Source of the DNA: Gammaproteobacteria bacterium
GTDB lineage: Bacteria; Pseudomonadota; Gammaproteobacteria; Poriferisulfidales; Oxydemutatoraceae
DNA: 38,075 nucleotides
Direction of reading: 5' to 3'
Assembly (NCBI GenBank): GCA_007570905.1
Contig: RKSI01000028.1
Span: 1-38,075 of the forward strand
Below the pieces are notes generated by a model, which was given only the letters and a program-made list of their open reading frames with translations, had not been told where the DNA came from and did not search any database. Both the position numbers and the translations under genes were made by a program. This document shows, piece by piece, positions 437 through 38,075 of the stretch (its first letter is position 1; each line of letters opens with the position of its first letter).

Positions 437-1183
437 TCAGCGGCCATTGGCGACAAAACAGTCCGGCGGCACGATGCGCGGATCCACATATGAAAAATAC
501 AGCGCGTCCAGTTGGCTCCACAGCACATCGCACTTGAAGCGCAACGCGGCCAGCACGCCGTGTTGCCGCTCCAGCGTGTTCGCGTTGTCAAGGACATATT
601 GCAGCGCGAAGTCCACATCGCGGCGCGCCTGCGTCAGGCGCGGCTTGAAATAGGCCATCGTCTCCTCGGTGATGAAGTCATAGCCGGCCAGCATCCCGGA
701 CATTCTCTCGGCGATGATGACGGGCGAGAAAATCTCGGTCAGCGACGACGCCACGGCGTCGAGCAACGGCATCTCCGAGACAAAATGCACATATCCGCCG
801 ACCGCGAACTTCGTCGCCGGCAGCGCGCCCTCGCGCGACATCACATAGTCGCGCTCAAGCCCCAGCCCGTCGGTGAGTTTCAGCCAGCGCTCGATGCCGC
901 CGCCGCCGTCCTCGCCGCCGTCGTGGTCGGCGATTCGCTGGCGCCACTCGCGGCGCAGCGTGTGGTCGGGAATGCGCGCCATCAGCCGCGCATCCTTGAC
1001 CGGAATCGCCGCCTGGTAGCAGTAGCGGTTCAGCGCCCACGCCTGCACCTGGCCCTTGTCCAGTTGGCCGGTGTGCAGCAGGCGGTGGAAGGGGTGCTTG
1101 TCGTGGTAGTAGTTCTCGCCGATTTCGCGCAGGCGCCGTTCCAGGTCGCCGCGGCTCAGCAAACTGCCGGGGCGCAGGTTCAC
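437..1183 (-). CDS. pqqC: PqqC, pyrroloquinoline-quinone synthase
   Basis: Track ORF 437..1312 contains YYHDKHPFHRLLHTGQLDKGQVQAWALNRYCYQ and the rest of the PqqC pattern. I place the start at GTG 1181-1183, which overlaps the pqqB stop (GTGA). This gives 248 aa, the normal PqqC size. Confidence 0.9.
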   Translation of the reverse strand: MNLRPGSLLSRGDLERRLREIGENYYHDKHPFHRLLHTGQLDKGQVQAWALNRYCYQAAIPVKDARLMARIPDHTLRREWRQRIADHDGGEDGGGGIERWLKLTDGLGLERDYVMSREGALPATKFAVGGYVHFVSEMPLLDAVASSLTEIFSPVIIAERMSGMLAGYDFITEETMAYFKPRLTQARRDVDFALQYVLDNANTLERQHGVLAALRFKCDVLWSQLDALYFSYVDPRIVPPDCFVANGR

Positions 1184-2109
1184 AGGTCTATCACCTGGCC
1201 GTCGCGCGACACCGTCCAGCCCGCCTGTTCCACTATCTTGCGCTCCGGCGAATTCTCGACCAGCACCGGATTGGTGTTGTTGATGTGAATGAAGATTTTG
1301 CGGTCTATGCACAGGTCGCGGAAAGCCGCGAGCGAGCCGTCTTCGCCGTTCATGCTGATGTGCCCCATGCGCCGGCCGGTCTTTTTGCCGACGCCCATCG
1401 TAATCATCTCGTCGTCGCGGAACAGCGTGCCGTCAAAAAACAGCAGGCCGCTGCCATCCAGGCGTTGCCGCAGCGAGTCGGTGAGGCCGGCACAGCCGGG
1501 AATGTAGTGGAACGAGGCGCCGCTCTCCGGGCTGCGGACATGCAGGCCGACGGTGTCGCCTTCCTCGGTGCCGAAATCGCCGCCGCGGCTTGCATCCTCA
1601 AGGAACAGCGCGACCTTGCCCGGCACCGCAAACGCCTCCACCTCAAGCCCGAGCGGGCGCCCGTGCGCATCTTCGGGGCGGAAAGGCGCCGACAGCGCGA
1701 TGGTGTGGCGCCGGACATACTCCGGGTTCAGCACATTGAAAATGGAATTGGTCGTGAGAATCCGGTGCACGCGGGCGGAGGCGTAGATGCTGAAAGGTTC
1801 GCTCTCACGCATCGTCAGCAGGCCGGCGATGTGGTCCACATCGCCGTTCGTCAGCACGACGGCCTTGACCGGGCTGCTGCGCAGCCCTTCGCGCGGATGC
1901 AGCGGTTCGGTCTGGTTCAACTGCTGCCGCAAATCGGGCGAGCAGTTCAGAAGCAGGTAACGGGAGCCGTCTGCGGTGACGGCGAGTGAAGACTGGGTTC
2001 TTGGGAAGGCCCGAGTACTGTCGTTTCTTGCGAGACGGCAGTACTCAGAATTGCAGTTCCATTGCGGGTACCCCCCTCCTGCCGCAGAGCCTAAAACGAT
2101 GATACGCAT
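1180..2109 (-). CDS. pqqB: PqqB (metallo-beta-lactamase fold)
   Basis: 309 aa beginning MRIIVLGSAAGGGYPQWNCNSEYC..., with VLTNGDVDHIAGL, the characteristic PqqB N-terminus. It sits between pqqA and pqqC. Confidence 0.92.
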   Translation of the reverse strand: MRIIVLGSAAGGGYPQWNCNSEYCRLARNDSTRAFPRTQSSLAVTADGSRYLLLNCSPDLRQQLNQTEPLHPREGLRSSPVKAVVLTNGDVDHIAGLLTMRESEPFSIYASARVHRILTTNSIFNVLNPEYVRRHTIALSAPFRPEDAHGRPLGLEVEAFAVPGKVALFLEDASRGGDFGTEEGDTVGLHVRSPESGASFHYIPGCAGLTDSLRQRLDGSGLLFFDGTLFRDDEMITMGVGKKTGRRMGHISMNGEDGSLAAFRDLCIDRKIFIHINNTNPVLVENSPERKIVEQAGWTVSRDGQVIDL

Positions 2110-2176
2110 TAGAGTCGGGAATCACCGCTTTATCCATGAGGCCCGGCGAACAAGAGAGAGGGACCAACAACGTTTT

Positions 2177-2193
2177 GATTACTTGCGGTAATC
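2177..2193 (-). other. Stem-loop (GATTAC-N5-GTAATC) 11 nt after the pqqA stop
   Basis: A perfect 6-bp inverted repeat is seen in the pqqA-pqqB spacer with no U-run. It is a possible transcript-stabilising or processing hairpin of the kind often found after pqqA. Confidence 0.3.
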
Positions 2194-2203
2194 AGGGCCG
2201 TAA

Positions 2204-2287
2204 TCAGGAAATTTCGGCGCAGGCATAGCAGTTGATTTCCATGCCGACGGAAATTTCTCTAATTGCGGGTGTTTTCCATTCTTTCAT
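2204..2287 (-). CDS. pqqA: PqqA, PQQ precursor peptide (27 aa)
   Basis: Hand translation gives ATG AAA GAA TGG ... TCC TGA = MKEWKTPAIREISVGMEINCYACAEIS. It has the conserved E-x-x-x-Y (EINCY) cross-linking motif and the methylotroph-like EI.VGMEv..Y..AEI pattern. An AGGAGG RBS lies 9 nt upstream, and the gene is directly upstream of pqqB. It is too short for the ORF track. Confidence 0.85.
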   Translation of the reverse strand: MKEWKTPAIREISVGMEINCYACAEIS

Positions 2288-2349
2288 CAGTAGATACCTC
2301 CTGATAGTGTTGAAATGCTAATTAGCGATTTGTGCATAAGCACAATGGC

Positions 2350-2358
2350 ATATTATCA
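2350..2358 (-). promoter_or_regulatory. Candidate extended -10 promoter element (TGaTAATAT) for pqqA
   Basis: The minus strand reads caTGaTAATATgcc about 63 nt upstream of the pqqA ATG, in an AT-rich spacer. The -35 is weak. Confidence 0.35.
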
Positions 2359-2459
2359 TGAAGACCGGCGAACAATCATTGAATTTTTCAATCTATCCGT
2401 CCGGTTTTGCGGCAGTATTATGGCAAAATAGCCTATAATATCAACCACTTGCGCCGTTT

Positions 2460-2834
2460 TCAGAAGCAGCGCACCTCGGCCTCGGCCTGCGCCGCCCGGA
2501 GTTTGTCCACCGCCTGCCGAAGCCATTCGGCGGTGCGGAACGCGGCGACGCGCTCGCCCTGCACCTGGCGCATGCGAAGCACCGTTTCCGCCTCCACATA
2601 TGCGTCGTATTTCATCTGCTCGGCAATCGCGTCTATCGTGCACGAGCATTTGTTCAGTATCTCCATGGACTGGCCGTTGGTGCTCATGCAGGCAAACACG
2701 AACTCGGCGCGCGCGCTGGTCGGAAAGTCGTTGGCGGCGGCGCCGGAAGCGGCGCACAAAAGGGCCGGCGCAAGACAGGCCGCGAGGCCCCCGTTCCGGG
2801 CGCGGAAGTTTGCGCGGCGTTTCGTTGCTTTCAT
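2460..2834 (-). CDS. Hypothetical small periplasmic Cys-containing protein (last gene of xox operon)
   Basis: The start is at MKATKRRANF..., with an AGGAGG RBS spanning the stop of the upstream gene. It has a signal peptide (LAACLAPALLCAASGAAA) and 4 Cys in the mature part. I recognise no family. Confidence 0.6.
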   Translation of the reverse strand: MKATKRRANFRARNGGLAACLAPALLCAASGAAANDFPTSARAEFVFACMSTNGQSMEILNKCSCTIDAIAEQMKYDAYVEAETVLRMRQVQGERVAAFRTAEWLRQAVDKLRAAQAEAEVRCF

Positions 2835-2835
2835 G

Positions 2836-3561
2836 TCAGCGTTCCTCCTGTGTGAGATGGCCGGAGAAGGCCGTCGGCGGCTCAATCCGGCTGAATTTCA
2901 TCTCGGTGTGTTCCAGAGCCTCGTCTTCAGGCGCGTCGCCGGGCAACCGCGTTGCAATGCTGTAAATCCCGCCGGGAATATCGTCGGCCAGCACAAACTC
3001 ATAGCGCTTGGCCGGATAACTCTTGTAGCGGTCGTCGCCCTTTTTGGAGGCGAGCGGCTCAAAAAACACCTTGTGCCCGTTGATGCGACGCCCGTCGTGG
3101 GTGAAGGTAATCTCCTCGCTTGCGGCGGCGCTCAGAAACGCCTGCTTAATCAGGTTGCGTAAGTAATGGCGGCTGATGTCGCTGTCGCGGCCCATTTTAC
3201 CCACATCCCACTCGAGGAAATACATAATCAGCGGATTGCCGTGAAAATCCTCAATGGCGTAGTTTTTGCCGTTCGCGCCGCTTAAAAACTCGGTTTCCAC
3301 ATCCTTGCCGCCGCGCTCCGTCAGGCCGGTAATCTTCAGCGTAACATGGTTTTCAATGGCCTCCGTTTGCGCGCCGCGCTGATGAAAATCATAATGCAGC
3401 GCCGCCGCAGACCGGATATTCCGGAGATGCGGCGTGTCAAACAGCAGCAGTTGCTCTTTGCTGTAACCGTCGCCGACTTCCTGCGCGGGCGCGAGCGGCG
3501 CAAGCAGCAGCGCCAGCGCGACAAGGTTCGGCAAGAGGCGCCGCTTGCCGTTCCGTTTCAT
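2836..3561 (-). CDS. Hypothetical secreted protein (241 aa), xox operon
   Basis: It has a signal peptide MKRNGKRRLLPNLVALALLLAPLAPAQE and a GGAGG RBS. Its start makes an ATGA overlap with the stop of the upstream CXXCW gene. The family is not recognised. Confidence 0.65.
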   Translation of the reverse strand: MKRNGKRRLLPNLVALALLLAPLAPAQEVGDGYSKEQLLLFDTPHLRNIRSAAALHYDFHQRGAQTEAIENHVTLKITGLTERGGKDVETEFLSGANGKNYAIEDFHGNPLIMYFLEWDVGKMGRDSDISRHYLRNLIKQAFLSAAASEEITFTHDGRRINGHKVFFEPLASKKGDDRYKSYPAKRYEFVLADDIPGGIYSIATRLPGDAPEDEALEHTEMKFSRIEPPTAFSGHLTQEER

Positions 3562-4145
3562 CGCTGTTCCTCCATCAATTCCGGGAATTCCGGCGGCATC
3601 TTCACAACCTTGCCGACGGCCAGTTCATGCCCCGCCTCTTTCCACTCATCCACGCCGCCGGGAAACCAGTGGACATTGCGAAAGCCGTACTCCATCGCCC
3701 TTTTCGCCGCGTTCCATGACATCCAGCAGTTGGCGTCGCAGTAGAAGACCAGAATCCGCCCTTCGCGGTGGGTCGTCAGCATCTCCAGGTTGTCCATGAA
3801 ATAGCGCTCGCGGGCGTCCGAGATGCGGCCATAACCGACATTCGGCAGCCACACGCTGCCCGGCAGGTTGTGGCGCGTAGGCGGGCGCCACAGGCGGTCG
3901 GCGGGAAAGTCGGGGGGTTTGCGGTCGCGCGGCAGCACATCAATCAGCGCGACATCCATGTTGCCGTCGTTTGCAAGCAGCGCGTGCAGCGCCGCGGCGT
4001 TGAGCACGGTCGCGCCTTTCAGCGTTGCCGGCACCGGCGCGCGGTAATCGCTCATGCGGTAGTCCCGCGGCTCGGCGACAACGCCGGACGCAACCGCCGG
4101 CGGCGCCAGCACCGCGCTTGCGGCAAGCAGCAGCGAGAGCATCAT
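3558..4145 (-). CDS. PQQ-dependent catabolism-associated CXXCW-motif (rhodanese-like) periplasmic protein
   Basis: The start is at MMLSLLLAASAVLAPPAVA (signal peptide), in an ATGA overlap with the xoxJ stop. The motif ILVFYCDANCWMSW matches the CXXCW family found next to quinoprotein dehydrogenases. Confidence 0.75.
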   Translation of the reverse strand: MMLSLLLAASAVLAPPAVASGVVAEPRDYRMSDYRAPVPATLKGATVLNAAALHALLANDGNMDVALIDVLPRDRKPPDFPADRLWRPPTRHNLPGSVWLPNVGYGRISDARERYFMDNLEMLTTHREGRILVFYCDANCWMSWNAAKRAMEYGFRNVHWFPGGVDEWKEAGHELAVGKVVKMPPEFPELMEEQR

Positions 4146-4960
4146 CTTTCCGCCACCAGCGGCACGCCGTATTCGCGCAACAGCGCGTCCAGTTTGTCCC
4201 GGTTCTTGCGTATGAAGCGGTTGAGTTGGCGCTTCCATTTAATTTCATTCGGGCGCACGCCCATCGTAATCCGGTAAATCATGCGGTGCTTTTCCGAGTG
4301 GTCGGCGACCAGCGGCGCCACCTTCAGGCGCGAGTCGTGCCGCTTGTTCAGGTAGCCCGCAATAGGCCCCCACAGGACGGCCACATCCAGTTTGCCGGCC
4401 AGCAGGTCCTTCACAATCTGCTCCGAAGGCGAATCAACCCGGGTGTCCACGACCAGATGGTAGGAGGCGACCTGCTCCATCAAGTCGTTTTCAAGCAGCA
4501 GGCTCGTCGGCGGCGTCCCGGCAATCAGGCCGATTCGCAATTTCGCGTCTTTCAGTTTCGGGTCCGACAGCGAGGCCGGTTTGTGGCCGGCGTCGGCGGG
4601 ATAGACCAGCGCAAATGCCGACGAGTAATACGGGTTGGTGTTCAGCAGCAGTTCGTTGGCCGCCGAGATGCCGACGACAAGATCGCAGCGCCTCGCGCTC
4701 AATGTCGTTCGCACAAAGCCCATGCTTTGCGGAAACCAGTAGTAGGAAAGCGGAATGCCGAGATCCGCGGCGATGAGTTCGGCGATTTTGTTCTCAAACC
4801 CCGTTTGCGCCCTGTTTGAGTAGGGCATATTGTTCGGGTCCGCGCAAACGCGCAGGACAGTTCGTTTTGCTACTTCGGTGCCGCCATCAGCGGCAAACAG
4901 CGCTTGCGGGCTGCAAACAAGGATTGCGGCAGCGGCGGCAAGCAGGCGCGCTCCGTTCAT
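4142..4960 (-). CDS. xoxJ: XoxJ/MxaJ-type periplasmic binding protein (quinoprotein dehydrogenase-associated SBP)
   Basis: 272 aa with a signal peptide. The pattern LRVCADPNNMPYSN...GFENKIAELIAADLG is the family-3 SBP fold typical of MxaJ/XoxJ. It makes an ATGA overlap with the xoxG stop. Confidence 0.8.
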   Translation of the reverse strand: MNGARLLAAAAAILVCSPQALFAADGGTEVAKRTVLRVCADPNNMPYSNRAQTGFENKIAELIAADLGIPLSYYWFPQSMGFVRTTLSARRCDLVVGISAANELLLNTNPYYSSAFALVYPADAGHKPASLSDPKLKDAKLRIGLIAGTPPTSLLLENDLMEQVASYHLVVDTRVDSPSEQIVKDLLAGKLDVAVLWGPIAGYLNKRHDSRLKVAPLVADHSEKHRMIYRITMGVRPNEIKWKRQLNRFIRKNRDKLDALLREYGVPLVAER

Positions 4961-5469
4961 AAATCGCCGAAGCAGGCTTTTTCATTCTCTGCCGCTTCCG
5001 GCGGCTTGCCCGTGTGCTTCGGACGATCCATGCCGATGGCGCCGTCGGCCCTTGCGACCAGGTAGGTGTAAATGTCGTCCACAAAACACATAACATTGAG
5101 ATTGGTTGCAAACCCCGGCATCACATTCTGCGTGGCCGCGTCCACATTGACCCGGCCATTGACGACCACTTCCAGATATTGTTCATAACTCAGGCGCTTG
5201 ATGGACTCCAGCAGGTTGGGCGCGAAAGAACTGCCCAGCCCGCCAGGCCCGTGACAAACATGGCATTCGGAATGGTAGCGGCGGTAGCCGCTGAATGTCG
5301 GCCAGTTCACCTTGCCGTCGGCGTTCACCTTGTATGGCTTTTCGCCTTCCGCGGCAAAGGCGCCTGGCGCCGCCAGGCAGGCCGCGAAGGCCGCCGTCAG
5401 CAACACGCCAAACCGGTGGCGAGATAAAAGAGCCCGGCAAACCGGGCGTTGTTGAGTTGTCGCCGGCAC
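4957..5469 (-). CDS. xoxG: XoxG / PedF-type c-type cytochrome (electron acceptor of XoxF)
   Basis: It has a signal peptide and a single CHVCH heme-binding motif, is about 170 aa, and lies between xoxF and xoxJ. The start is GTG at 5467-5469 (longest ORF). Confidence 0.8.
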   Translation of the reverse strand: MPATTQQRPVCRALLSRHRFGVLLTAAFAACLAAPGAFAAEGEKPYKVNADGKVNWPTFSGYRRYHSECHVCHGPGGLGSSFAPNLLESIKRLSYEQYLEVVVNGRVNVDAATQNVMPGFATNLNVMCFVDDIYTYLVARADGAIGMDRPKHTGKPPEAAENEKACFGDL

Positions 5470-5497
5470 CGCGTTTGTCCCGAAAAATCCTGTCCTG

Positions 5498-5538
5498 AAA
5501 AAAATCCGGCCCCCGAACCGGACGGTGCGGGGGCCGGA
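5498..5538 (-). terminator. Intrinsic terminator/attenuator between xoxF and xoxG
   Basis: A perfect 11-bp GC stem (TCCGGCCCCCG / CGGGGGCCGGA, 12-nt loop) is followed on the minus strand by U7. It lies 17 nt after the xoxF stop. Confidence 0.7.
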
Positions 5539-5554
5539 CCAAACAACATCGAAG

Positions 5555-7363
5555 TTACAGGGTAAAGACCGTCAGGCCGCCACCCAGCCGGGTGTAGTTC
5601 TGCAGGTGGCGGTAGCCGCCTACAGCGCCCAACCCGTCACGATCGCCGGTCAGACCAGCGGCCATGCCGATACCGGCCCAGCCGCCAATGCCCGAATAAA
5701 CGGCCACATGCTGCTTGCCTTTGTGCATGTAGGTCATGACATTGCCGATGATGCCGGAAGGCGTCTTGAACTTGAACAGTTCTTCGCCGCTCTTGGCATC
5801 CACCGCTTTCAGGTAGCCCTCAAGCGTGCCGTAGAAGACCACATCGCCGGCGGTCGCCAGCGCGCCGCTCCAGACGGAGAACTTCTCGTCAATCGCCCAC
5901 ACTTCCTTGCCCTTGTCGGCATCCCAGGCGATGAACCGGCCCATATGGGGGCCGCGGTCCGTGCCGCCCGGGCGCGTCGGCGCCGGGAACATGTCGAGGT
6001 TCGCTCCAACATATGGCTGACCCACCGTGTAGCTGACCTTGAAAGGCTCATAGTTCATGCAGACATGGTTTGTCGGCACATAAAACAGCCTCGTCCGCGG
6101 TGAAAAAGCCGCCGGCTGCTGGTCTTTTGTTCCCAGCGCCGCCGGGCAGATGTCCTTTGAAAGCACATCTTCGCCGTTGTACTCGGTGCGGTACTTGTTC
6201 ACCATGTTCGGACGGCCGGTTTTCATGTCGATGTCCGTCGCCCAGTTGACCACATCGTCGAATTTCTCGGCGACCAGCAGTTCGCCGTTCACACGATCCA
6301 TGGTGTAGGCGAAGCCGTTGCGGTCAAAGTGCACCAGCACCTTGCGGGTCTGGCCCTTGACCGGGATGTCGGCGAGTATCATCTCGTTGATGCCGTCGTA
6401 ATCCCACTCGTCGTGAGGCGTCATCTGATAGACCCATTTGGCCATGCCGGTGTCGGCGTCACGCGCGAAAATGGTCATCGACCAGCGGTTGTCGCCGGGG
6501 CGCTGAACCGGGTTCCATGTGCTCGGGTTGCCCGTGCCGTAATAAACCAGGTTCAGGTCGGGGTCGTAGGAAAACCAGCCCCAGGTTGTGCCGCCGCCGA
6601 TTTTCCACTGATCCCCTTTCCAGGTGTTGGTGCCGGAATCCTTGCCGACCGGCTCGCCGAGATGAGTGGTCTTCTTCGGATCAATCAAGGTGTCGGAATC
6701 GGGACCCATTGAATAACCGCGCCAGACCCGCTTGCCGGTCTTGGTGTTGTAGGCGGTCAAATGTCCGCGAACGCCGAATTCACCGCCGCTGATGCCGACA
6801 TAGACCTTGTCCTTGACGACCATCGGCGCCGCGGTTCCGGTCTGGCCCTTGGCGATGTCGCCATTCTTGGCGCTCCAGACTTTCTTGCCGGTCTTGGCGT
6901 CCAGCGCAACCAGCGTCGTGTCGGCCTGATACAGGAAAATCTTGCCGTCGGCGTAGGCGACGCCGCGGTTGACGGTGTCACAGCACATCACCGGAATCGT
7001 CGCCGGATCCTGTTGCGGCTTGTATTCCCAGACGATGCCCGCGTCTTTGTCCAAATCGAGCGCATACACGATGTTGGGGAACGGCGTATGAACATACATC
7101 ATGTTGCCGACAACCAGCGGGTTGCCTTCGTGCCCGCGCAGAACGCCGGTCGAGAAAGTCCATGCAACCTTCAGGTCCTTGGCATTCTTTGAGGTGATTT
7201 GCTTCAGTTCCGAATAACGGTGGTTGGCGTAGTTTCCGGTCGGCATCACCCACTGATTGGCGTCATCCGACATCCTCATCAGTTTGGTGTTTGCATGCAG
7301 ACTGGAAGCTCCGGCCAGAGCGACCGCTACCGCAACCAAGGCAATAGTTCGTCTCCCTTTCAT
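5555..7363 (-). CDS. xoxF: XoxF-type lanthanide-dependent PQQ methanol dehydrogenase
   Basis: Track ORF 5555..7495 is trimmed to [21 protein letters not shown] (signal peptide, GGAGG RBS). It shows the MDH N-terminus [19 protein letters not shown], the vicinal disulfide [11 protein letters not shown], and [11 protein letters not shown]. That last block has the D-x-D feature: the extra Asp two residues after the catalytic Asp is diagnostic of lanthanide-binding XoxF/PedH rather than MxaF (D-x-A). Confidence 0.92.
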
Positions 7364-7552
7364 TCCATAGTCCTCCAATGTGTTGGGGTTTTGTTTTTTT
7401 ACGGGTTGCCGGGCGGCAACCGATATGTCTATTCTTACATAAATAGCCAATAAGATATACGAAATTTTCAATCGGATTGTTCGTACATTCGGCAAAAGGC
7501 ATGTTTCCTTGATTTAACGGCAATTTTTGCCAAATCCGGCCCACGCAAGACC

Positions 7553-8340: not shown

Positions 8341-11300
8341 TCAACCGCCGGACTTAAGGCGCGCCTTCGGCGCGCCGATGAATTTCACTTGCGGGTTTTC
8401 CCAACTGCCCTTCAGCGCATAGCGCAGCGTGATGACCCGGTCCACCCGGCGGCCCAGGCGCGCGGCCTTGTCCACGACAAAAACAATGGCGCCGGCGAGC
8501 GGGCCGGCGAACAGCGCCGACATCAGCGGCAGCGTTGAACTCAGGTTCGGCACCACATCAATCCGCTGGTCGTAGTCGCGCGCGGCGATGCCGGTGCGCC
8601 CGCTGATGGACAGGTTCAGCGCGGGGCCGTCGATGACGAAGTTCTCGGTCATCATGTCGCCGCCGCCGAAAACCAGGCGCCCGCTCATCGTGTCAAAGGC
8701 GAGGCCCTTGTCGAACACATCCTTGAAATCAAGCGTGAAGCGCTGCACTATCTCCGAGATGTTCAGCAGTCCCAGCAGTTTGCCGACGCCGGGCTTGAGC
8801 GTCTCGACGGTGCCGTCTTCGGTGTCAATCACGACCTCTCCCTCGAGTTTGCCGAGGCCGAAGCGCGGCAGCGAATCGTTCCACGCGACATCGCCGCGCA
8901 GCGTGCCGCGCGCGCCCTTCAAACCGGTCTGAAACCCCCACAGCCGCAGCAGTTTTCCGTAGTCGCCGCTTTCCGCCTCCAGTTTCAGTTCGCTGCGCTG
9001 CCGGTCGCCGCCGTTCCAGCGCCCGCTGAGCCGCACCTCGCCGATTGTCGTGCCGTCGGCGACTTTGCTGAAAGACGCCCTTGAAATCGCCAGGCCCGGT
9101 TGCGCCGGGTTGGTCATCACGCGCAGGTTGTTGACGGCAATCTCGTCAAACCGGAACTCGCCCACCCGAATCGCCAGCGGCGGCAGGCCGGCGGGATCGG
9201 GCGCGCCGCCGTCAGCGCCGGCGCCGATGTCCGCAAACATCGCCTCGCCAAGGCCAAGACGCTCAAAGTCGAGATAAACGCGCGGGTTGGCGGCCTGCGC
9301 CTGCGGGAAAATAACGCCGCCCTTGACCGGTTCGGAATCAACGCGCAACTCCAGCCGTCCGTCCGGCAGGCGCGCGGTTTTCAGCGCCAGTTTGCCCAGC
9401 GCCTGCCCGCCGAACGCGGCCTGCCCGATGACGACATCCACCGCGCCCGGCACGACCGGCGCCGCGCCGCCGCCGATGCGGTCGCCGTGCGTGCGCCACC
9501 ACGCCAGCCACTCGCCGAAGTCCAGATGCTCAATCGCGCCGCGCACGACCGGCGCCGCGCCGGTCGCGGCACGGTGCGGGCCGGGGCCGAGCAACAACTC
9601 GCCCGGCGCACCGCCCGGCGGCGGCAGCGCCCAATCAAACACATCGCCATAAACGACCCGGCGCGGCGCCGCGCCCAGCCCGGTCTCAAACACAAAAGTC
9701 TCGGCCTGTTCGCCGTCCCTGCCGAGCGGCGCCGGCAGGTTGACGCGGATGCCGCGCAGGTCGGAAGTCAGTTTAATCCTGAAGCCGCCGCCCGCCTGCA
9801 CCGCGGCGCCGGGGTTCGGCACCAGCACTTCGGCGCGCCACCCCGCCTCGCCGCCGACAAAATCTTCCAGCGCCGGCGGCGCGGCGGCGGCCATCAGGTC
9901 GGCAAAGTCCGGGTACGGCGCCAGCGTCGCGCTCAGGTCCAGCGCGGTGCCGCCGGCGACACGGCGCGCCGCAATCGTCACCGGGCGCCCCCTGAGTTCG
10001 GCGTTGATGTCGTCGGCGGCGGCGCCGGCGCGGTTGAACGCAAGACGCCCGCGCAGTTTGTCAAAGTCCAGGCCCAGCACCGGAAAAGCGAGGCCGGAAT
10101 TGTCGAAATCCAGCGTGCCGGAAACCACGGTCTTGTGCTTTACCTTGCGGCTCAGCGGCACTTCCAGGTTCAGCCGCAGGCGGCTGTCGCCGCTTGCGGC
10201 GAGGTGGGCGGGCGTCAGTCCGTAGGCGTCGAACAGTTTCAGATGATGCAAATGCGCCAGCACATCGGCAAGCGGCCCGCGCCCGCCGGCGGTGACGGCC
10301 AGCACCGGGCGGCGAACATCGGCGATGGCGACGACGGCGTCTTCGGAACGGGTGTCGAGAACCCGCAGGCGCGAGATGTCGGCGCGCAGCGCGCCGTTGC
10401 CAAACACCAGATCCGCATCCACGCCGCGCAGCGGCGGCTGGCCCTTGCGGTAATTCAGTTCGGCATCGGCGATGGCGGCGGTGATGCGCACGCCGTCGAG
10501 AAAAGAGAAGTCCGACGGCGCGCCGGCATAAACCACCCGCGCCTGCGTCACGCGCCCCGCGACCGGCGCGCGCCGCAGCCATGCATCAAGCGCCGCCGGC
10601 AGTTTCCCTTCGGGCAGCCAGTTGGCGATGCGGTTCAGCGGCAAGTCTTCAAGCGTCGCCAGAAACGCCAGATGTTCCGCCGCGCCGCGCGACCATTGCA
10701 CGCCGCCGCTGAGCGGAAAGGCCTCCTGCGGCGACGCCGCGGCGCCGGGCTGCAACGCGCCGCCGGTCAGCGCGAGTTGCACGCCGCCGGCGCCGGCGCG
10801 CCCGTGCAATTCGCCCGAAACCCGCCCTTCCCAGCAGCGTTCGCCGGTCGCCAGTTCACAGCCGCCGCCAATCTCAACGCCGTCCAGTTCCATCTGAAAC
10901 TCCACCGCGTCCGGCGCGGCGGCATCGCGCACATCGCCGACAAAGCGCAGGCGCCGCCCGAGTGCGGGCGGCAAGTCCGCCTCTACCAGCACGCGCAGGC
11001 CGCCGTCGGCGGACCCCGGGCGCTGCAACACGATGCGCGCGTTGTCAAAGCGGCGCGTCTTGCCGGCGGCGGTGTCGCGCCAGTTGATTGCCACATCCTC
11101 AATCTGCAAATGCGGAAAGGCCGACAGCAGCGCCGGCGACAGCCCGGCAACCACGCCGGAAGTGCCGCCGGCGGGCGGGCGCAGGCCGTCGGTGGCGATG
11201 TCGAGTTCAACGCCGGCGGCGTACACGCCGGAAATTTCCGGGCGCATCCGCAGCAGCGACCGCAGCGCGTCCAGTTCAACCGCCGCGCTTTGCACCGACA

Positions 11301-24440: not shown

Positions 24441-24959
24441 CTAACTGGCGTGCCCCACCGTGACTTCCTGGTCGCCGGCGAAATGCCCAAGCCCGGCTGC
24501 GATGCCGACGCCGACGCCCGTGCCGACAGCGGCCACGGTGGCCGTCAAGCCGACGACGGTGGCGGCGCCGATGGCGACCGCCACGGTATTGGCAAGCGCC
24601 CCGGCCTTGACCGAGCCGATGAAGATGGTCGCCGTGACGACCCCGATGACCGAAAGAGCACAGGTAATCTCGAAAGCGCCTCCGCTGATTTTGGCCAACT
24701 GCTCATCCGTCAGGTTTTCCCCGAGATGCTCGAGAACGGAATAATCCGGCACGCAAATGTGCATCACATCCGCGGTGTTCTGCTCCGCCCTGACAGCGAT
24801 GTCGTCGCCGATGGACAAACCTTCCGGCAAACAGGAAATCACAGCCGCCTTCGCGTCATCGCGCATCGCCGCCATGAATTCCCCGTTGTTCACGCAACGC
24901 GCCGCCAGATGAATGGAAACCAGTTCATTAAGCGCCGCGATGGTATTGTCTTGTTGCAT
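24441..24959 (-). CDS. NHLP-like leader / double-glycine bacteriocin-RiPP precursor with 78-aa Gly/Ala/Val-rich hydrophobic core
   Basis: 172 aa. Residues 1-94 resemble the nitrile-hydratase-like leader peptide domain (EFMAAMRDDAKAAV...IAVRAEQNTADVMHICVP) and end in LTDEQLAKISGG. Residues 95-172 (24444-24677) form a glycine-zipper-rich hydrophobic peptide. The gene has an AGAGAGG RBS and its own promoter and terminator. Confidence 0.75.
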   Translation of the reverse strand: MQQDNTIAALNELVSIHLAARCVNNGEFMAAMRDDAKAAVISCLPEGLSIGDDIAVRAEQNTADVMHICVPDYSVLEHLGENLTDEQLAKISGGAFEITCALSVIGVVTATIFIGSVKAGALANTVAVAIGAATVVGLTATVAAVGTGVGVGIAAGLGHFAGDQEVTVGHAS

Positions 24960-36177: not shown

Positions 36178-36267
36178 TGGTGCGAAAGGAGAGATTCGAA
36201 CTCTCACAGGGATTTGTTCCCCACCGGCTCCTAAAGCCGGCGCGTCTGCCGGTTCCGCCACTTTCGC
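36178..36267 (-). tRNA. tRNA-Leu (anticodon TAG), long variable arm, CCA encoded
   Basis: The reverse complement is GCGAAAGTGGCGGAACCGGCAGACGCGCCGGCTTTAGGAGCCGGTGGGGAACAAATCCCTGTGAGAGTTCGAATCTCTCCTTTCGCACCA. It has a 7-bp acceptor stem, an anticodon stem CCGGC/GCCGG with loop TTTAGGA, and a GTTCGAATC T-loop. Confidence 0.9.
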
Positions 36268-36296: not shown

Positions 36297-36611
36297 TCAG
36301 CGCGGCGCCTGCTGCATGATTCTGGCCCTGTACTGCCGCCAGTTGGCGCCCATCAGGCGCAGGCCGTCGCCGTCGGCGGCGTAGCGGCGGCGGTTCAGGC
36401 GGTAGGCGATATAAGGAATCTTGTAAAACACCAGGGCCAGAAACATGATGGCGAGGCCGACGCCGGGCTTGTGCTCGTCCAGCAGCGGCACGCCGCCGCG
36501 CCACAGCAGCACCCCGGCCAGGCACACCGCGGCGGCCAGCGCCACCGTCAGCAGACGGTTGTAGCGGTCGTGGGAGCGCTTGATTTGCGCCAGCAGTTCA
36601 ATGGTTTCCAT
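36297..36611 (-). CDS. Hypothetical small membrane protein (104 aa, 2 predicted TM)
   Basis: METIELLAQIKRSHDRYNRLLTVALAAAVCLAGVLLW...GLAIMFLALVFYKIPYIAY has two hydrophobic helices. No family is recognised. Confidence 0.45.
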   Translation of the reverse strand: METIELLAQIKRSHDRYNRLLTVALAAAVCLAGVLLWRGGVPLLDEHKPGVGLAIMFLALVFYKIPYIAYRLNRRRYAADGDGLRLMGANWRQYRARIMQQAPR

Positions 36612-36713: not shown

Positions 36714-37066
36714 GCGAGTCGGCCGGACGGTCGCTGTGATTGCACAGAGGAAAGTCCGGGCTTCACAGGGCAGGGCGCCAGGTAACGCCTGGAAGGCGCG
36801 AGCCTATGGAAAGTGCCACAGAAAATACACCGCCGCGCCCGCGGGCGCGGTAAGGGTGAAAAGGTGCGGTAAGAGCGCACCGCGCCGGTGGCAACACCGG
36901 CGGCAGGGTAAACCCCGCCTGAAGCAAGGTTGAATAGGGAGGCAAGCGCGTTGCGCGTCACACGGCCCGTGTGCGCTTCCGGGTAAACCGCAAGAGGCGC
37001 ATGGCGACATGCGTCCCAGATGAATGACCGTTCACGACAGAACCCGGCTTACAGGCCGACTCACCC
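36714..37066 (+). ncRNA. rnpB: RNase P RNA, bacterial type A (ends approximate, +/- 5 nt)
   Basis: Universal blocks are present: GAGGAAAGTCCGGGCT, CAGGGCGCCAGGTAACGCCTGG, ACAGAAAATACACCGCC, GGTAAGGGTGAAAAGGTGCGGTAAGAGCGCACCGC and AGATGAATGACCGTTCACGACAGAACCCGGCTTAC. P1 pairs GAGTCGGCC (36716-36724) with GGCCGACTC (37054-37062). Confidence 0.92.
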
Positions 37067-37148
37067 GAACCGAAGTCCGGTATAATCCGGCGACAACGCG
37101 GGCGGCGCAAAACCGCCCTTCAACGCAACTCAAAAAAGGAGAAACATC

Positions 37149-37436
37149 ATGTCCAGAAACAAGACCTTCACCTCGACGCTCGCCGGAGTCCTGGCGCTCG
37201 GCGCGGGCGCTTTCGCCACCCAGGCGGCGGCGGTTCCCGACGCGCCGAAGATGTGGGAGAAATGCGCCGGCATCGCCAAGAAAGGCATGAACGACTGCGG
37301 CTCGCTTGACGGCAAGCACGGCTGCGCCGGGCAGGCCGCGATGGACAACGACAAAAACGAGTGGGTCTATGTGCCCGAAGGCACCTGCGCGAAAATCGCC
37401 GGGGGCGAGGTCGTCGCGACCAGGCCGGCGAAGTAA
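37149..37436 (+). CDS. DUF2282-type Sec-exported four-Cys peptide (bufferin/HvfA-like RiPP precursor)
   Basis: A strong RBS AAAGGAG precedes the start. It has a signal peptide [28 protein letters not shown]. The mature domain carries Cys in EKCAG, NDCGS, HGCAG and EGTCAK contexts plus [11 protein letters not shown], the DUF2282 pattern. A DUF692 gene follows directly. Confidence 0.8.
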
Positions 37437-37445
37437 TTCGCTCGC

Positions 37446-37483
37446 GGCCCGGGCGCCCTCGCCTTGCGGCGGCGCCGCGGGCC
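37446..37483 (+). promoter_or_regulatory. GC-rich stem-loop between precursor and enzyme genes (possible attenuator/processing site)
   Basis: GGCCCGGGCGCC (37446-37457) pairs with GGCGCCGCGGGCC (37471-37483), with a one-base bulge and a 13-nt loop. There is no U-run. Confidence 0.4.
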
Positions 37484-37499
37484 AATCCGGCATCCGGCA

Positions 37500-38075
37500 T
37501 TGAAAGGGGAAATTAACGGCGTCGGCATCGGCCTGCGCTCGCCTCATGTCGCCGAGATTGCGCGCGGGCGGCGCGATGTCGGCTGGCTGGAAATTCTGGC
37601 AGACAACTATCTCGCGGAAGGCGGGCGCTGCCGCCGCGACCTTGAAAGGGTGCGCGAAAACCACGCCTGCACCTTCCACTGCGTCGGCATGTCGGTCGGT
37701 TCCGCCGACGAACTCAACGACGGCTATCTCGGCCAGATCAAGGAGTTGGCCGACCGCTACCAGCCGGCGTGGGTCTCCGACCACCTGTGCTTTGTGTCGG
37801 CGTGCGGCGAGTACCAGCACGACCTGCTGCCGCTGCCGCGCACCGAAGAGGCGGTGCGCCACGCCGCCGAACGCATCGGGCGGATACAGGAACGCCTGCG
37901 GCGGCGCATACTGATAGAGAACATCTCGTGCTATCTGGATTTCGGCCACTCAATGATGAGCGAGGCGGAATTCGTCAACGCCGTTTGCGAGCGCGCCGAC
38001 TGCGGCCTGCTGCTGGACATCAACAACCTTTATGTCAACCAGGTCAATCTCGGCGCCGACGCGCGCGATTTTCTG
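37500..38075 (+). CDS. DUF692/UPF0276 family enzyme (MbnB/HvfB-like multinuclear non-heme iron oxidase), 5' part, runs off window
   Basis: Hand translation of the frame containing 37518 gives (TTG)KGEINGVGIGLRSPHVAEIARGRRDVGWLEILADNYL...TFHCVGMSVGSADEL...PAWVSDHLCF...HDLLPLPRTEEAV...RILIENISCYLDF...CGLLLDINNLYVNQVNLGADARDFL. The frame has no stop to the window end, so it is absent from the track. The start is assumed to be TTG at 37500, which is uncertain. Confidence 0.85.
   Translation, partial: MKGEINGVGIGLRSPHVAEIARGRRDVGWLEILADNYLAEGGRCRRDLERVRENHACTFHCVGMSVGSADELNDGYLGQIKELADRYQPAWVSDHLCFVSACGEYQHDLLPLPRTEEAVRHAAERIGRIQERLRRRILIENISCYLDFGHSMMSEAEFVNAVCERADCGLLLDINNLYVNQVNLGADARDFL

Follow-up and report, generated by a model that had tools for sequence, protein, structure and literature searches.

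The locus described here lies at the 3' end of contig RKSI01000028.1 (assembly GCA_007570905.1) from a gammaproteobacterium of the family Oxydemutatoraceae, a stretch of 38,075 nucleotides that was analysed as a whole and is referred to as the window. It consists of two forward-strand genes, bufA, which encodes a small four-cysteine protein of the DUF2282 family, and bufBC, in which a multinuclear non-heme iron oxidase (MNIO) is fused to its DUF2063 partner in a single polypeptide. Together they very probably form a Buf1-type bufferin cluster, a class also described as captophorin or MNIO-PME1 clusters, whose products are peptides made on the ribosome and modified after translation (RiPPs). 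An earlier note, made from the letters of the window, had recognized a DUF2282 precursor beside an MNIO gene, assigned the pair to the bufferin class, placed it directly after rnpB and described it as cut by the window edge; all of this stands, with E-values of 2.5e-23 for PF10048 and 1.5e-70 for PF05114 and a bufBC frame open to position 38075. The features of the locus are the following:

36715..37067, forward strand: rnpB (RNase P RNA, class A), full-length match to Rfam RF00010 at 330 bits
37136..37141, forward strand: Shine-Dalgarno sequence AAGGAG, 7 nt 5' of the bufA ATG
37149..37436, forward strand: bufA, Buf1-type (DUF2282) bufferin precursor of 95 aa, PF10048
37149..37232, forward strand: predicted Sec signal peptide, aa 1-28, from sequence features and hydropathy
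37263..37388, forward strand: span of the four Cys codons, C39 (37263-37265), C50 (37296-37298), C59 (37323-37325) and C80 (37386-37388)
37500..38075, forward strand: 5' part of bufBC, aa 1-192 of 607, PF05114, gene truncated by the contig end

Organization of the bufA-bufBC Locus

Translation verified the bufA frame at 37149-37436 (+) as a 95-aa protein. The MNIO frame runs open from a TTG at 37500 to the last base of the contig and is missing from the program-made track of open reading frames (ORFs) because frames running off the end are not listed there; the G+C content at third codon positions (GC3), 0.88 in bufA and 0.82 in the frame of the MNIO, supports both as genuinely coding. The start of bufBC is taken as the TTG at 37500, a position kept in the related contigs L010 and L012, and the alternative TTG at 37464 falls within an intercistronic hairpin. 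Nine metagenome contigs of the Joint Genome Institute (JGI), with 99.3-99.9% identity to the tail of the window, encode exactly the same BufA protein, and full-length bufBC was recovered from contig L004, which is 99.86% identical to the window over 2129 nt and extends beyond its end. There the gene is a single 607-aa ORF comprising the MNIO, a linker and a partner (BufC/PME1) made up of DUF2063 and a region resembling a RiPP recognition element (RRE).

Recovery of the complete gene bears on two further expectations of the earlier note, a DUF2063 gene and a DoxX gene downstream of the MNIO. The DUF2063 partner is present (PF09836), not as a separate downstream gene but fused in the 607-aa ORF, while no DoxX gene was found in the window's lineage or its three closest relatives, in the retrieved regions around bufBC of L004, L010, L012 and L013 (up to ~8 kb per side). 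In L004, bufBC is followed by a convergent glycosyltransferase gene, then by csrA and an aspartate kinase gene, and the gene immediately 3' of bufBC is a convergent glycosyltransferase in L010 as well. The locus is a two-gene bufA-bufBC cluster, and the predicted four-gene layout fails.

Upstream, rnpB lies directly 5' of bufA on the same strand, an adjacency also seen in L010, L012 and L013, and the order rnpB-bufA-bufBC is kept in relatives whose BufBC proteins are 82% (L010/L011), 68% (L012) and 63% (L013) identical. The AAGGAG motif is unchanged across the four-lineage alignment. Across these syntenic relatives BufA is more conserved than its enzyme, with identities of 80-94% for the precursor and 63-85% for BufBC.

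The BufA Precursor

BufA matches PF10048 (DUF2282/BufA1) over profile positions 1-52 of 53, scoring 82.2 bits against a cutoff of 22.4; PF09490, the accession given earlier for DUF2282, is wrong. Homologues number 1168 at E≤1e-5, and among the matches listed all belong to PF10048. The four cysteines, found in the contexts EKCAG, NDCGS, HGCAG and EGTCAK, are each 100% conserved across 120 homologues, as the earlier note had supposed, and exactly four cysteines are present in 116 of the 120. W36, E37, K38 and H57 are also invariant in a set of about that size (~120).

The N-terminus has the makeup of the Sec-type signal proposed in the earlier note, as judged by inspection and hydropathy, with a basic n-region (R3, K5), a 13-residue hydrophobic core and A-A-A before V29. 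The cleavage site is predicted from sequence at about A28|V29, and a cut after A26 is also possible; A28, V29 and P30 are invariant or almost so in 119 homologues. By homology to Buf1 of Caulobacter vibrioides, C50 and C59 are predicted to be the sites of thiooxazole formation and C39 and C80 to form a disulfide pair. In Buf1 itself the two central cysteines become 5-thiooxazoles and the outer pair a disulfide (PMC11626156, PMC12452194), which contradicts the earlier claim that all precursor cysteines are converted into copper ligands. Nor is the oxazolone-thioamide product named there the current reading, as the modifications of HvfA have been reassigned from oxazolone-thioamides to 5-thiooxazoles (bioRxiv 10.64898/2026.07.17.739211).

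The BufBC Maturase

The part of bufBC that lies within the window matches PF05114 (MbnB_TglH_ChrH) over model positions 1-186 of 263 and carries all of the DUF692 motifs listed in the earlier note. In the full-length protein, PF05114 spans residues 7-267 (332 bits) and PF09836 (DUF2063) residues 354-444 (77-81 bits), followed by 160 aa more. Nine residues, H60, H95, E140, D173, N176, H204, D217, H219 and E246, are invariant among 37 fused homologues. In a phmmer alignment, N176, D217 and H219 correspond to the residues of 3BWW that match N175, D242 and H244 of HvfB, its "site 3", and mutation of these HvfB residues abolishes HvfBC activity (bioRxiv 10.64898/2026.07.17.739211).

An AlphaFold2 model of BufBC, built with the 37 fused homologues, reached a predicted local distance difference test score (pLDDT) of 87 and a predicted template-modelling score (pTM) of 0.84. 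In it, residues 1-273 form a TIM barrel, residues 274-344 are disordered, and residues 345-607 make up a domain of helices plus a β/winged part (pLDDT >90). Foldseek matched the N-terminal half of the model to 3BWW, TglH and MbnB, with a target-normalised template-modelling score of 0.86 to 3BWW, and the C-terminal half to TglI (8hi7_A, E 1.3e-5), the partner protein in the TglHI complex; the C-terminal half is tied to a partner protein by this fold search only.

Relationship to Known MNIO Systems

Full-length BufBC scores 335.7 bits against NCBIfam NF050167 (MNIO_BufB) and passes the equivalog cutoff of 310, whereas its scores for NF003818 (HvfB; 243 bits, cutoff 360) and TIGR04159 (MbnB; 52.6 bits, cutoff 325) fall short. 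The ApyH and ChrH equivalog cutoffs are failed too, and NF050145 (HvfC) is matched weakly and under its cutoff (37.9 bits). Because the BufB cutoff is passed and that of HvfB is not, the enzyme is assigned to the Buf1 type and not to the HvfA/EGKCG oxazolin type. The class named in the earlier note, HvfABC/bufferin, accordingly holds in its second half and not in its first. Two candidate assignments were rejected: HvfABC/oxazolin (EGKCG-type), given the HvfB score and a BufA translation with no EGKCG repeat, and methanobactin MbnABC, given the MbnB score, a partner that is DUF2063 and not MbnC, and a precursor of the DUF2282 family.

The founding Buf1 system, buf1ABCD of C. vibrioides (CCNA_03363-03366; PMC11626156), likewise has a four-cysteine DUF2282 precursor (with a Sec signal, as predicted for BufA), a BufB-type MNIO and a DUF2063 partner with an RRE, in the same order of precursor, MNIO and partner. 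The present locus differs in that a linker of ~70 aa of repeats unites BufB and BufC in a single chain, that bufD (DoxX) and a neighbouring sigF/nrsF pair are missing, and that it adjoins rnpB. DoxX genes are frequent in Buf1 clusters without being needed for function; C. vibrioides can do without DoxX (PMC11626156), and its buf2 cluster has none. The gig operons of Cupriavidus metallidurans and Legionella pneumophila (PMC10304878, PMC5413113) belong to the same cluster family, gig (gold-induced genes) operons being bufferin biosynthetic gene clusters (PMC12452194); they are named after induction by gold, whereas the window holds a locus of two genes with a fused maturase. HvfABC/oxazolin of Haemophilus influenzae and the EGKCG-type captophorins fontiphorin and gonophorin (PMC11252979, PMC13097082) also combine an MNIO and a DUF2063 (PME1) protein with a Cys-rich precursor, Sec-exported there and predicted to be so here, and their product carries a 5-thiooxazole copper ligand of the kind predicted here, but the HvfABC-type precursor is an EGKCG repeat protein, in contrast to the four-cysteine DUF2282 precursor of the window. 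The MNIO of methanobactin MbnABC is more distant, a TIM barrel with the same metal-ligand residues and a partner protein at an identity of ~18-21%. In MbnABC a cysteine is also oxidised to a copper-binding heterocycle, but the product is an oxazolone-thioamide and a secreted chalkophore, MbnA has a leader peptide in place of the Sec signal predicted for BufA, and the partner is MbnC and not DUF2063.

According to the earlier note, few members of the class have been studied. This is true of experiments; bioinformatically, the family has been mapped, with thousands of Buf1 bufferins and ~14,000 MNIOs collected (PMC12452194). The locus is an ordinary member of this very large family, and its sole unusual trait is the fused maturase.

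A Natural Fusion of MNIO and Partner

The MNIO-DUF2063 fusion is real. Its two domains are joined by an Ala/Pro/Arg-rich linker of ~70-85 aa, modelled as disordered, that is built of tandem hexapeptide units of roughly A-P-R-[A/T]-[N/D/G]-x and encoded by a DNA repeat with a period of 18/36 nt (L004 2376-2540, past the window end). The hexapeptide copy number varies between strains from ~2 to ~12 while the flanking domains are conserved, and this variation across strains and species gives BufBC lengths of 531 to 639 aa. Across these length-variable linkers the ORF is uninterrupted in the independently assembled sequences P0001-P0010, P0316, P0319, P0321 and contig L001. These represent different samples and lineages of as little as 63% identity, with contigs of 0.5 and 1.5 Mb among them. 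Between the MNIO and DUF2063 halves of BufBC there is neither a stop or start codon nor a ribosome-binding site.

It is exceedingly improbable, given these open frames, that the fused ORF is an artefact of assembly or gene calling, with bufB and bufC truly separate genes and the linker a misassembled intergenic region. Such an origin could be suspected from the GC-rich 18/36-nt tandem repeat, a kind of repeat that breaks assemblies, and from the finding of separate bufB and bufC ORFs in 71 of 80 species-representative loci. JGI contigs L003 and L007 do stop at or within the repeat, and the DUF692 and DUF2063 halves of one related metagenome-assembled genome (MAG) are stored as two separate "partial" records, so the repeat probably does break assemblies. 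An artefact would nevertheless have to produce an open frame over linkers of varied length in different samples, in lineages down to 63% identity and in contigs as long as 0.5 and 1.5 Mb, with neither a stop, a start codon nor a ribosome-binding site parting the halves, and it would have to do so again in the genomes of cultured Massilia, Duganella, Burkholderia and Methylophilus, where fused proteins recur.

HMMER, run exhaustively against 1.84 billion cluster representatives, returned 1139 proteins at E≤1e-30, and both halves are present in 101 of the best 150 of these, a ranking that favours two-domain proteins. Among the best 80 loci in GTDB species representatives, 6 are fused (in Duganella, Pseudoduganella, an Oxalobacteraceae strain, Methylophilus sp. 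42 and Burkholderiaceae MAGs) and 71 have bufB and bufC as separate ORFs. Scanned with the single fusion protein, genome contigs yielded no relative, and a profile scan gave matches all at ≤50% identity. The fused enzymes of Massilia, Burkholderia cenocepacia and one further genome each have a BufA1 gene just 5', and a DoxX gene lies 3' in one of these three genomes and is absent from the other two. Fused MNIO-DUF2063 proteins are a recurrent minority architecture.

Outside the window's clade, the closest MNIO domains are unfused, at 52% identity. Fused proteins are interspersed with unfused ones in a neighbour-joining tree of their MNIO domains, which has 31 state changes over 153 tips; the resolution of the tree is too low for counting independent fusion events, and the interleaving suggests, without proving, that fusion arose repeatedly. 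Natural MNIO-DUF2063/PME1 fusions go unmentioned in the bufferin and MNIO papers covered by a term search, the landscape paper and its supplements included, which does not prove that they are unreported.

An engineered fusion of HvfB and HvfC works in vivo and, in vitro, has higher activity than the co-expressed pair (bioRxiv 10.64898/2026.07.17.739211). As in BufBC, the DUF2063 partner follows the MNIO in the chain, its N-terminus attached to the C-terminus of the MNIO, but this fusion is artificial, has no linker and uses HvfB, whereas BufBC is natural, belongs to the BufB subfamily and has a long, variable and disordered repeat linker. One more Buf1 locus among thousands changes little alone. 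What carries weight is that MNIOs are found repeatedly fused to their DUF2063 partners in nature, in at least 101 clusters at 50% identity, and that in the window's clade the fusion has a long repeat linker and forms part of a minimal two-gene cluster. Natural fusions of this kind are ready single-chain enzymes for biochemistry and spectroscopy that now depend on the engineered HvfBC fusion, and they support a 1:1 complex of MNIO and partner as the functional unit.

Non-coding Elements and Possible Regulation

Two further elements flank bufA:

37100..37118, forward strand: GC hairpin GGGCGG-cgcaaaa-CCGCCC between rnpB and bufA, from sequence
37446..37483, forward strand: intercistronic GC-rich stem-loop, ~10 nt 3' of the bufA stop and 5' of bufBC, from folding

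The first, which is conserved in L010 and partly in L012, could be a terminator or processing hairpin at the 3' end of rnpB or part of the bufA 5' untranslated region. The second lies in the 69-nt bufA-bufBC spacer, which has a minimum free energy of -37.7 kcal/mol. In the window this stem-loop does not fold better than shuffled sequence (z -1.6), and stem-loops of different sequence stand at the equivalent place in L010, L012 and L013 (z -2.0, -4.9 and -3.1, respectively), with none of 200 shuffles folding as well for either L012 or L013. No T-run follows the stem-loop at 37446-37483. By analogy with other RiPP operons, it is probably an intercistronic attenuator or stabiliser that would raise bufA mRNA over bufBC mRNA.

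A TATAAT at 37081-37086 recurs in the closest relative only and has no -35 element, and no promoter of the extracytoplasmic function (ECF) type was definable from the four sequences. In L012, where BufBC has 68% identity, two genes at 9640-10736 (+) adjoin bufBC. The first encodes an ECF sigma factor and overlaps bufBC at its 3' end and stop codon; the second encodes a 208-aa protein that matches no family, has a single predicted transmembrane helix and may be an anti-sigma factor other than NrsF. The pair of ECF sigma factor and membrane protein resembles the SigF/NrsF control of Caulobacter.

Proposed Pathway and Physiological Role

A pathway can be outlined from the gene content, domain architecture, ligand and cysteine conservation, synteny and predicted fold, with its chemistry, export route, metal and physiological role taken from homology to characterized members. 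In this pathway, bufA would be translated into the 95-aa precursor and modified in the cytoplasm by single-chain BufBC, which with O2 would convert Cys50 and Cys59 to 5-thiooxazoles at a loss of 4 Da each. The modified precursor would then be exported by Sec, the signal peptide cut at about A28|V29, and Cys39 and Cys80 joined in a disulfide. In the periplasm, the thiooxazoles of the mature ~67-aa protein would coordinate copper at a 1:1 ratio (2N/2S), and the protein would buffer excess copper; Buf1 itself binds Cu2+ 1:1 and is exported in a Sec-dependent manner (PMC11626156). The fusion would enforce a 1:1 ratio of enzyme to partner, a ratio that depends on the assembly of a complex where BufB and BufC are separate proteins.

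It is very doubtful that the DUF2282 protein is not the substrate of BufBC, or not its sole substrate, with another Cys-rich peptide being modified and the DUF2282 protein remaining an unmodified periplasmic or membrane protein. Older annotations of DUF2282 do describe a small protein of this kind, a sizeable share of bufferin precursors is encoded away from MNIO genes and certain MNIOs may act on multiple substrates (PMC12452194), and the RREs associated with DUF2063 show no defined recognition motif (PMC12710340). Here, however, bufA adjoins bufBC across a spacer of ~60 nt in every lineage examined, distant fused systems included, the four cysteines are invariant, and modification of a BufA1 precursor by BufB1 and BufC1 of the same family has been reconstituted in vitro (PMC11626156).

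Several results weigh against the assignment to a Buf1-type bufferin made and used under copper stress. An AlphaFold2 model of BufA built with 119 homologues was poor (pLDDT 51, pTM 0.28) and did not confirm a Buf1-like peptide fold, and a sequence-profile search of the PDB with the C-terminal half of BufBC did not reach the DUF2063 structure 3DEE. A sigma-70 promoter scan of the rnpB-bufA interval detected none, no copper-responsive regulator adjoins the locus, and the pair of ECF sigma factor and putative anti-sigma factor found in L012 is absent from the window's lineage. The surroundings are of a housekeeping kind (tig-clpP-clpX-lon, rnpB, csrA and the aspartate kinase gene) with synteny kept, and such a setting suits a constitutive or core use no less than it suits a stress island. 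The conserved order runs from tig-clpP-clpX-lon to a tRNA gene, a 104-aa membrane ORF, rnpB, bufA and bufBC, with csrA and the aspartate kinase gene further 3'.

The 104-aa ORF in this order (36297-36611, reverse strand) lies between a tRNA gene (36181-36267, reverse strand) and rnpB, is predicted to have two transmembrane helices, matches nothing in Pfam or NCBIfam, and occupies the same place in L001-L006, L010, L012 and L013.

This setting bears on a second alternative, in which the chemistry is the same but the product serves as a constitutive housekeeping periplasmic metallochaperone or metal-acquisition factor, for example by providing the periplasmic enzymes of an uncultured gammaproteobacterium with copper or another metal, or by scavenging it for them, and not as a buffer induced by copper stress. 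We regard this role as unlikely. The preservation of rnpB-bufA-bufBC amid housekeeping genes in the lineages with BufBC at 82, 68 and 63% identity would suit it, as would the much higher conservation of BufA (80-94%) than of BufBC (63-85%) and the lack of an adjoining sigF/nrsF-type regulator or DoxX gene in the window's lineage, and fusions of bufferin domains to MerC hint at metals other than copper (PMC12452194). All characterized members, however, protect against excess copper (PMC11626156, PMC13097082), in L012 the 3' end of bufBC is still overlapped by a gene for an ECF sigma factor, as stress control would predict, and regulators can work in trans, as does SigF in Caulobacter (PMC11626156).

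We retain copper buffering by a Buf1-type bufferin as the preferred role. A broader proposal is that in the window's uncultured clade the natural single-chain maturases would amount to more than a chance fusion, with the hypervariable repeat tether functionally tuned, and that the conserved order rnpB-bufA-bufBC would stem from co-transcription with the RNase P RNA, the bufferin being a constitutive core factor of periplasmic metal handling instead of part of a stress island; this is speculative and in our judgement improbable. The tether might in that case be tuned, for example, to the effective concentration of the RRE or to membrane or Sec contacts that couple modification to export.

Other Features of the Window

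At 24441-24959 (reverse strand), a 172-aa ORF with a GC3 of 0.76 has no Pfam match and reaches sub-threshold NCBIfam scores for TIGR03793, an NHLP leader-peptide RiPP precursor family (23 vs. 50.9 bits), and TIGR03949, a class IIb bacteriocin family (21.0 vs. 21.5 bits). No maturase or C39 peptidase exporter adjoins it. Its translation reads "...LTDEQLAKISGG|AFEITC...", with a double-glycine leader end followed by a hydrophobic core of ~80 aa rich in Gly, Ala, Val and Thr, and it may encode a second, unrelated RiPP or bacteriocin precursor.

A pyrroloquinoline quinone (PQQ) gene cluster is present at 437-7495 (reverse strand). It contains pqqC, pqqB, an unassigned 241-aa ORF, and genes for a PQQ-associated CXXCW protein (TIGR03865), a MoxJ-like binding protein (TIGR03871), a methanol-metabolism cytochrome c (TIGR03874) and a 646-aa PQQ dehydrogenase of the methanol/ethanol family (TIGR03075, 768 bits), a content that fits a candidate xoxFGJ-like cluster.

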